A DNA stretch of 21,195 bases from a virus. Taxonomy: Duplodnaviria; Heunggongvirae; Uroviricota; Caudoviricetes. Of the stretch, positions 2,455-2,529 are shown piece after piece. The stretch lies in IMG/VR virus record IMGVR_UViG_2534681940_000040. One strand, written 5' to 3'. A program made the translations under genes and the position numbers. The notes under the pieces were generated by a model. The model searched no databases, had not been told where the DNA came from, and was given only the letters and a program-made list of their open reading frames with translations. Within the stretch, counting starts at the first letter, position 1. Each line of letters opens with the position of its first letter.

Positions 2455-2463
2455 ACAAAAACC

Positions 2464-2487
2464 TTGACAGGTATCTTTTTTGATACC
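2464..2487 (+). promoter_or_regulatory. rightward early promoter -35 (TTGACA) overlapping a palindromic operator GGTATC-N6-GATACC
   Basis: Exact TTGACA at 2464-2469. Inverted repeat GGTATC ttttttGATACC at 2470-2487 fills the spacer, followed by a -10-like CAAAAT at about 2487-2492. Lies in the 75-bp gap between the divergent repressor and early genes. Confidence 0.45.
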
Positions 2488-2529
2488 AAAATGATTTCAC
2501 GAGCTATTAGATGATCACAATATACCACT

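Follow-up and report, generated by a model that had tools for sequence, protein, structure and literature searches.

The gap between the repressor gene and the first early gene of the Escherichia coli O157:H7 prophage CP-933T very probably carries the operator at which the prophage's own XRE-family helix-turn-helix (HTH) repressor represses the early operon. The gap lies in a 21,195-nucleotide stretch of DNA recorded in IMG/VR as IMGVR_UViG_2534681940_000040 (referred to as the window when its full length is meant), and the operator, O1, is a perfect 18-bp dyad in the spacer of the predicted rightward early promoter, Pe. Both arms of O1 co-vary with each other and with the recognition helix of the repressor, and the site was for this reason assigned to the HTH repressor. 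A preliminary description, made from the sequence of the window, had proposed a lysis–lysogeny operator bound by the HTH repressor and/or the ribbon-helix-helix (RHH)-like product of the first early gene; its control region and its HTH part stood, while its RHH part did not. The features at the core of the switch, numbered from the first base of the window, were as follows:

2050–2454, minus strand: gene of the XRE-family (Cro/C1-type) HTH repressor (134 residues, WP_000786773.1; recognition helix at residues 31–39)
2455–2529: intergenic gap of 75 bp between the leftward repressor gene and the rightward Arc-like gene
2462–2465, minus strand: putative Shine-Dalgarno (SD)-like AAGG, 7 nt before the repressor ATG and overlapping the Pe −35
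2464–2469, plus strand: Pe −35 hexamer TTGACA, read from the sequence
2470–2487: main operator O1, GGTATC-TTTTTT-GATACC (arms at 2470–2475 and 2482–2487, TTTTTT at 2476–2481)
2487–2492, plus strand: Pe −10 hexamer CAAAAT, overlapping the end of O1 by its first base
2499, plus strand: predicted Pe start (A, 7 nt past the −10; position 2690089 of EDL933, NZ_CP008957.1), placed by promoter geometry
2530–2736, plus strand: first early gene, encoding a 68-residue Arc-like (RHH-like) protein (phrog_3431, 4.3e-27), with no Shine-Dalgarno sequence
2753–2956, plus strand: second early gene, encoding a 67-residue Cox-like excisionase/repressor (phrog_575, 1.2e-27)

Pe (TTGACA-17-CAAAAT, 2464–2492) was the sole sigma-70-like site between positions 1900 and 3400, scoring 10 of 12, and its 17-bp spacer was exactly filled by the O1 dyad. 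In the predicted layout, the operator thus overlaps the early (lytic) promoter, the only strong one that reads rightward. TTGACA occurred on the plus strand of the window at 2464 and 6052 only. The −35 hexamer and the inverted repeat GGTATC-N6-GATACC had been placed at 2464–2469 and 2470–2487 in the preliminary description, and all of its coordinates held. Among 17 relatives of the Arc type, Pe was the best-scoring plus-strand promoter in 15; the relatives kept CA(A/C/T)(A/T)AT at the position of the Pe −10 and a CA(C) motif at the predicted start. The Pe leader (2499–2529) was conserved and was predicted to be unstructured.

The dyad alone was not beyond chance, because the window contained 13 perfect inverted repeats of the 6-N6-6 form (5.0 ± 2.2 in shuffles). 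The exact dyad occurred once in the window, and the only other match at ≤2 mismatches was at 2825–2842 (0.37 expected). What raised O1 above chance was its exact fit to the spacer in a gap between divergent genes and, above all, its conservation with compensatory changes. Relatives were gathered by searching E. coli and GTDB genomes and IMG/VR with the repressor protein, and the removal of near-duplicates left 36 loci; the scan of genome contigs yielded two loci only, and the IMG/VR scans were far richer. All 36 showed TTGAC(A/T), then an 18-bp dyad, and then a −10 at 17 bp. Both arms varied jointly, giving at least 15 specificity classes, which included GGTATC/GATACC (window), GGTATA/TATACC, GGTATT/AATACC, GGTACG/CGTACC, GGTACT/AGTACC, GGTGTG/CACACC, GGTGCA/TGCACC, and GTTATC/GATAAC. 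A second scan, keyed on a block of invariant sequence to the right of O1 (described below), added distant repressor homologues of 35–50% identity, and these had dyads in the same place (TGACCA/TGGTCA, TGATCA/TGATCA, TAGGAA/TTCCTT, ATGAGAAC/GTTCTCAT, ATGCGAAC/GTTCGCAT, ATTTGCAG/CTGCAAAT, and GAGATCTATAGATCTC). A functionless chance palindrome beside a chance TTGACA would be in keeping with the 13 perfect dyads of the window and with promoter-like matches that were no commoner in the region than in shuffles. The three-part layout was, however, present in every relative examined, with arm sequences that shifted in step, and since the distant relatives hold very different dyads in the same place, chance is refuted by the comparative sequence data and retains a negligible probability.

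The repressor has a five-helix DNA-binding domain of the HTH_3 type. It matched phrog_8 (2.6e-14) and aligned without gaps with the N-terminal domain of P22 c2 (E 0.0055). Its AlphaFold2 model showed five N-terminal helices (mean predicted local distance difference test score 75.8, and >90 over residues 11–60), of which helix 3 comprised residues 31–39. Foldseek searches with this model retrieved the P22 c2–operator complexes at template modelling (TM) scores of 0.80–0.82 and a root-mean-square deviation of 1.6 Å. A sequence search of the PDB with the three regulators (repressor, Arc-like, and Cox-like) gave no significant match for the full proteins, and the 120 repressor homologues listed of the 213 with E ≤ 1e-5 all had generic names or were unnamed.

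Two residues of the recognition helix co-varied with two bases of the operator arm. Residue 32 followed the half-site (L with nATACC, Q with nGTACC, W with CACACC, and R with TGCACC; mutual information 0.79 bits, permutation p ≤ 0.0005), and residue 36 followed base 1 (R with G, N with T or A, and K with C or A; 0.79–1.07 bits, p ≤ 0.0005); arm bases 1 and 2 thus co-vary with residues 36 and 32, respectively. At most one in 2000 permutations reached the observed mutual information, and these p-values are optimistic, as the permutations ignore shared ancestry. The argument from helix and half-site therefore rests on the recurrence of the same pairings in distant branches: R36/G1 was found in the window type and in loci L085 and L086, and Q32/G2 in P2-like and Mu-like contexts. 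Residues 32 and 36 are positions 2 and 6 of predicted helix 3, and they align ungapped with V33 and Q37 of P22 c2 and with Q29 and Q33 of the 434 repressor. V33 and Q37 of P22 c2, and Q28, Q29, and Q33 of the 434 repressor, are base-contacting positions in published complexes. O1 thus has two-fold symmetry, and the sequence of its half-sites varies together with the recognition helix of the adjacent repressor.

Besides the optimism of the permutation p-values, several points weigh against a functioning repressor–operator pair. The Pfam scores of the repressor were below the curated cut-offs (24.1 against 27 for HTH_31, 19.3 against 30.2 for HTH_19, and 19.1 against 23 for HTH_3). The literature on CP-933T, Xuanwuvirus, and P2-like switches yielded no binding or start-site data for the phage or its homologues. 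The prophage is a remnant filled with insertion sequences (IS), and the control of a lytic cycle by the switch may be gone. Finally, the second operator described below matches O1 in the window at only 8 of 12 arm positions, which are partly codon-forced.

The dyad could instead serve the Arc-like protein, which would then autoregulate Pe in the manner of Cro. The gene of this protein lies directly downstream of the dyad, RHH proteins bind short repeats in promoters, and the protein is weakly RHH-like: the window protein had no Pfam match, RHH_5 was matched weakly by 10 of 13 relatives (best E 3.4e-4), and the profile gave weak matches to the RHH antitoxins KacA/TacA (DUF1778; E 0.012), to CopG (0.2–0.5), and also to HP0222. 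The Arc-like protein was conserved in the diverged relatives, as was, to a high degree, the Cox-like protein. In 113 pairs of loci, however, Arc-like proteins of at least 90% identity (many 100%) went with O1 arms that differed at ≥6 of 12 positions. Unrelated dyads stood beside Arc-like proteins that matched fully across 60 residues, identical dyads stood beside dissimilar Arc-like proteins, and the putative beta-strand (x-[AP]-[LM]-R-L-[ST]) was near-constant while the dyad varied. A Methylomonas relative retained the dyad scaffold with a Ner-like first rightward gene. The dyad follows the XRE recognition helix instead and is independent of the Arc-like protein across the loci compared, which makes the Arc-like protein a very improbable owner of O1.

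Slightly less improbable, and still a poor prospect, is a role for the inverted repeat as a nucleic-acid structure and not as a protein site: a hairpin in the leader RNA of the repressor gene, or a cruciform in the DNA, with compensatory changes that preserve pairing. The 6-bp stem had predicted folding energies of −7.6 and −8.5 kcal/mol (minus and plus strand, respectively; z of about −3.3), it would stand in the repressor mRNA leader near the SD-like sequence if the repressor promoter started near 2512, and compensatory change alone cannot discriminate between a hairpin and a protein site. A stem does not need the sequence conservation that was seen in the outer bases GGTA...TACC. Imperfect dyads (GATATC/GATACC, GGTATG/TATACC, TGTATT/AATACC, and GGTACT/CGTACC) unpair either strand without consistent G-U pairs, and the arm sequences change along with residues of the repressor helix. 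The second operator repeats the half-site sequence and yet folds poorly, and the dyad lies upstream of the predicted Pe start, which would leave it out of the early mRNA.

A second operator, O2, was absent from the preliminary description:

2440–2457: second, weaker operator O2, AATATC-ATTTTT-CATACA, with its centre 30 bp to the left of that of O1 and 8 of 12 arm matches to O1

O2 overlaps the repressor start codon (2452–2454) and codons 2–5. The relatives likewise carried a weaker copy of their own O1 at 29–34 bp to its left. Across 42 non-redundant loci, the match of this site to the O1 of the same locus scored 355, compared with 278 ± 7 for shuffled operator types (0 of 3000 reached it), and an earlier set gave 205 and 181 ± 3.5 (0 of 5000). 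Some copies were near-perfect (12 of 12 in L160 and 11 of 12 in L097), and in phages of the CACACC type the repressor start was GTG (CAC on the opposite strand), matching the half-site. The same comparison of own and shuffled types showed no enrichment of own-operator matches in the Pe leader or in the Arc-like, Cox-like, or repressor gene.

Three other candidate sites were rejected. The GATACC at 2548–2553, inside the first early gene, had been put forward as a further half-site; the sequence is present as described, and it was missing in L034, which has the same O1, was GACACC in L002, and showed no own-operator enrichment. It is probably a chance match outside the switch. The operator-like site at 2825–2842 in the Cox-like gene (10 of 12) was not conserved, and no enrichment was found there. 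TATACC at 2521–2526 is part of the invariant block and was constant across operator types; phage 520873 has TATATC in its place with the same O1.

The promoter of the repressor gene, Pc, must lie to the right of O1, because the 15 bp between the repressor ATG and O1 contain the Pe −35. The features of this side of the switch were as follows:

2513–2533: invariant block GATCACAATATACCACTATGA, 21 bp, ending in the start codon of the Arc-like gene, with a Dam site GATC at 2513–2516
2527–2519, minus strand: predicted Pc extended −10 TGGTATATT (TGG TATATT), within the invariant block
2547–2542, minus strand: Pc −35-like GTGAAG
About 2512, minus strand: predicted Pc start (EDL933 about 2690102)

The consensus of the block, GATCACAATATACCA(C/T)TATGA, was near-invariant in the 17 Arc-type relatives, which had been collected with the repressor, not the block sequence, as the query and whose repressors were 53–62% identical with differing O1 sequences. 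The block occurred once per locus, 44–45 nt from the first base of O1 in all classes, and no further copies were found in the window. With a simple promoter matrix, the Pc extended −10 was the top candidate in 12 of the 17 relatives and the runner-up in 4 others, at a constant position, and its variants kept the motif (TGa TATATT, TGt TATAGT, and TGg TATGTT). The Dam site, close to the predicted Pc start, was conserved in almost all relatives.

This placement somewhat favours an arrangement in which Pe and Pc face each other, with overlapping transcripts and predicted starts about 13 bp apart. With the same operator, Pc could also stand back-to-back with Pe and start near 2484, inside O1, so that the repressor would shut both promoters directly. 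Such a promoter can be drawn from a −35 TTGTGA (2519..2514), 18 nt, and TGaAATCAT (2499..2491), with 7.8 bits in the window, which counts against the facing arrangement; TTGTGA lies within the invariant block, and 5 of 17 relatives had a candidate based on it in their first three. Its −10, however, falls in a variable stretch and is lost in close relatives (AAGGTA/AGGTAT in L034), whereas TGnTATATT, at one fixed position, is among the best two candidates in 16 of 17 relatives, and PMC1904263 and PMC7498355 present convergent promoters as the rule in P2 and 186. We therefore consider the back-to-back arrangement unlikely. Of the divergent switch in the preliminary description, the divergence of the genes was borne out; the promoters are probably not divergent, since the leftward candidate with the best conservation is on the right-hand side of Pe.

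The probable mechanism is as follows. A repressor dimer on O1, between the −35 and −10 of Pe, would exclude RNA polymerase and silence the early operon, in which the Arc-like and Cox-like genes are followed by those for replication. The half-site would be read by the beginning of helix 3, as in P22 c2 and the 434 repressor, residue 32 facing base 2 of nATACC and residue 36 facing base 1, and the A/T-rich central 6 bp would probably remain without protein contact. O2, three helical turns to the left, would probably be filled by another dimer through cooperative binding. Transcription of the repressor gene most likely depends on the extended −10 of Pc, and in the facing arrangement occupancy of O1 and O2, by shutting Pe, would relieve the interference on the opposing Pc. 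At high occupancy, bound repressor would obstruct its own transcription at +25 to +72 and cover its own start codon, so that the gene would be negatively autoregulated. Both the Arc-like and the Cox-like protein are conserved across immunity types and are candidates to shut Pc, conjecturally via the invariant block.

No Peptidase_S24 domain was matched in the repressor in the Pfam search, and the C-terminal part of the AlphaFold2 model consisted of two helices and a disordered tail. As the repressor is without this self-cleavage domain, its RecA-mediated cleavage is not expected, and induction would need another factor. The repressors of loci L088–L207 (IMG/VR) were mosaic: the N-terminal domains were 30–40% identical across operator classes, and the C-terminal parts were often 60–69% identical. 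A second, unrelated C-terminal type (…YRAMD..A.LN.QAV.D.FAQSK) was also present among these loci. The disordered tail (GGNNRIAGRDYNETKGR, 2050–2100) has the motif NR-x-A-[GS]-RD-[YF]-[NH]-E, and the same motif was found at the N-terminus (NGSNNRVAGRDFHEKN, 1984–2034) of the 216-residue product of the neighbouring gene (1384–2034, minus strand). The pairing was also seen in Hafnia, and most repressor classes retained the tail motif. The 216-residue protein has a C-terminal transmembrane helix, a match to phrog_5825, and a partial match to the flagellar regulator Flk (NF007987, 8e-16, far under the cut-off); its gene stands between the repressor gene and the integrase gene in what is presumed to be the lysogenic operon.

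The ATG of the Arc-like gene at 2530 and the leader before it, which is SD-less, were the same in 17 diverged relatives. The lack of a Shine-Dalgarno sequence, which the preliminary description had pointed out, was thus confirmed, and its suggestion of a mis-started reading frame did not hold, the start codon being conserved at such divergence. It had also considered a leaderless mRNA. The ATG lies about 31 nt past the predicted Pe start, and the Arc-like mRNA is predicted to be SD-less with a leader. A weak promoter-like element on the plus strand, TTCACG-16-CAATAT, would give a leaderless Arc-like mRNA, and it scored 4.2–5.9 bits as opposed to 9.4–11.6 for Pe. RefSeq/PGAP annotation of the O157:H7 strains TR01 and NCTC9112 calls a 45-residue antisense open reading frame (ORF) at 2544–2681 (minus strand) and omits the Arc-like gene.

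Among known switches, the repressor–operator pair most resembles those of the P22 c2, 434, and lambda type, with P22 c2 being the best match in both sequence and structure. The likeness extends to the five-helix HTH domain, an 18-bp dyad over the early promoter whose centre is probably uncontacted, multiple operators, a repressor gene divergent from the early genes, and specificity set by positions 2 and 6 of helix 3. The SOS-inducible CI proteins of lambda, P22, and 434 differ in having an S24 (LexA-like) domain, which the window repressor does not have. Compared with the lambda type, there are two operators 30–32 bp apart instead of three at about 24 bp, O1 lies strictly between the −35 and −10, O2 lies over the repressor start codon, and the host phage is P2-like and not lambdoid. 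The mechanism is probably that of a classical Cro/C1-type repressor on a dyad operator, an ordinary phage on/off switch whose closest solved relative is P22 c2; the pair is uncharacterised and belongs to a known class of repressors.

The genomic context is that of a P2-like switch. It shares with P2 the gene order of int, repressor, and an early operon containing a Cox-like gene, and, as described in PMC1904263 and PMC2995052, the P2 repressor blocks Pe, and Pe and Pc are convergent; facing promoters are also predicted here. Two defining features of P2 were not found. P2 C recognises non-palindromic direct repeats (PMC2995052), whereas O1 is an inverted repeat, and cox comes first in the P2 early operon, whereas here the Arc-like gene is first and the Cox-like gene (phrog_575) second. 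The structure of P2 C was among the Foldseek matches of the repressor model (TM 0.55–0.66), and protein searches with the window repressor gave no P2 C match, leaving a distant similarity of fold only. A survey of P2-like switch regions reports the C/Cox and CI/Apl types only and does not mention the present type (PMC3448106).

For the 186 CI/Apl switch, PMC7498355 describes convergent promoters and a repressor acting at the lytic promoter, both of which are predicted here, and a small excisionase-like regulator in the early operon is a further likeness. The CI of 186 is of a different family and is larger than the window repressor. The start sites of 186 are 62 bp apart, compared with about 13 bp predicted here. 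Outside phage 520873, the only homologues of the repressor in phage records were BcepMu gp17, B3, KS10 gp13, KS5 gp11, and phiE255 gp46 (33–52% identity), which are repressors of Mu-like and Burkholderia/Ralstonia P2-like phages; the Mu-like Methylomonas relative has the same promoter–operator scaffold. We know of no published operator for any of these five repressors. With the Arc/Mnt system of P22 immI, the first early protein shares the name given to it by PHROG ("Arc-like"), weak RHH matches, and a beta-strand-like L-R-L-[ST] segment. No relation of the protein to P22 Arc was detectable in sequence, and the O1 dyad is not its site.

The locus may, tentatively, be an allele of an uncharacterised third type of P2-like switch, organised as an exchangeable immunity cassette in which the HTH domain, O1, and O2 vary. 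One could also entertain as its flanks the conserved C-terminal domain of the repressor and the invariant 21-bp block with Pc and the start of the Arc-like/Cox-like pair. Its at least 15 natural specificities would then follow a recognition code of two residues, 32 and 36, for bases 2 and 1. Should the invariant block be the target of the Arc-like protein, heteroimmune phages of the group would share one signal against the repressor promoter, and an infecting phage could stop repressor synthesis of a resident heteroimmune prophage. Apart from this reading, the comparison shows one promoter scaffold common to many P2-like prophages of Enterobacterales, with only the 18-bp spacer-operator and the reading head of the repressor swapped; it allows their immunity grouping from sequence alone and provides natural orthogonal repressor/operator pairs. 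The general view of phage repressor action is unchanged by these results, and the modular design is neat rather than surprising. The results provide a concrete map of the control region of CP-933T, a region present in about one-tenth of the complete E. coli genomes and in essentially all O157:H7.

The stretch is the immunity region of CP-933T, a defective P2-like prophage. It matched O157:H7 chromosomes at 100% identity and was found in 525 of 5426 complete E. coli genomes; the EDL933 copy adjoins yecA, and in the switch region positions in NZ_CP008957.1 equal the window position plus 2687590. Escherichia phage 520873 (Peduoviridae, Xuanwuvirus) was 95.5% identical to the stretch, and its annotation names the three switch genes as a transcriptional regulator, an Arc-like repressor, and a Cox-like excisionase/repressor, in agreement with the PHROG matches. 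The remainder of the window contains a GPA replication gene, ParM/StbB-like genes, tail genes, and three IS transposase genes, which were located as follows:

10482–11547 and 18734–19799, in inverted orientation: IS3-family transposase copies (rve, HTH_21) that bracket the tail genes
20161–21195: IS30-like transposase gene, reaching the end of the window

These transposase genes, including the two inverted copies of 1066 bp each, which are 99% identical, mark the prophage as a rearranged remnant.

Several other observations were made in the window. Downstream of the GPA replication gene (6273–9095), a ParM-like gene (StbA_N/ParM) and a plasmid-stability StbB-like gene at 9172–10513 form a plasmid-type partition module within a P2-like prophage. 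A DUF4761 gene begins at 2979–2988 with ATG and a run of seven A; strain TR01 (O157:H7) has eight A and an intact ORF of 351 nt, and the gene is frameshifted in the window and in phage 520873, leaving only the ORF at 3166–3327. A slippage-prone site or a sequencing difference could explain the length of the A run. An ORF for 76 residues at 5598–5828 (plus strand), within a region (5287–6809) where long ORFs overlap on both strands, is named "derepression protein" by RefSeq at the identical O157 locus and had no NCBIfam match; its product could bear on the inactivation of the non-cleavable repressor.

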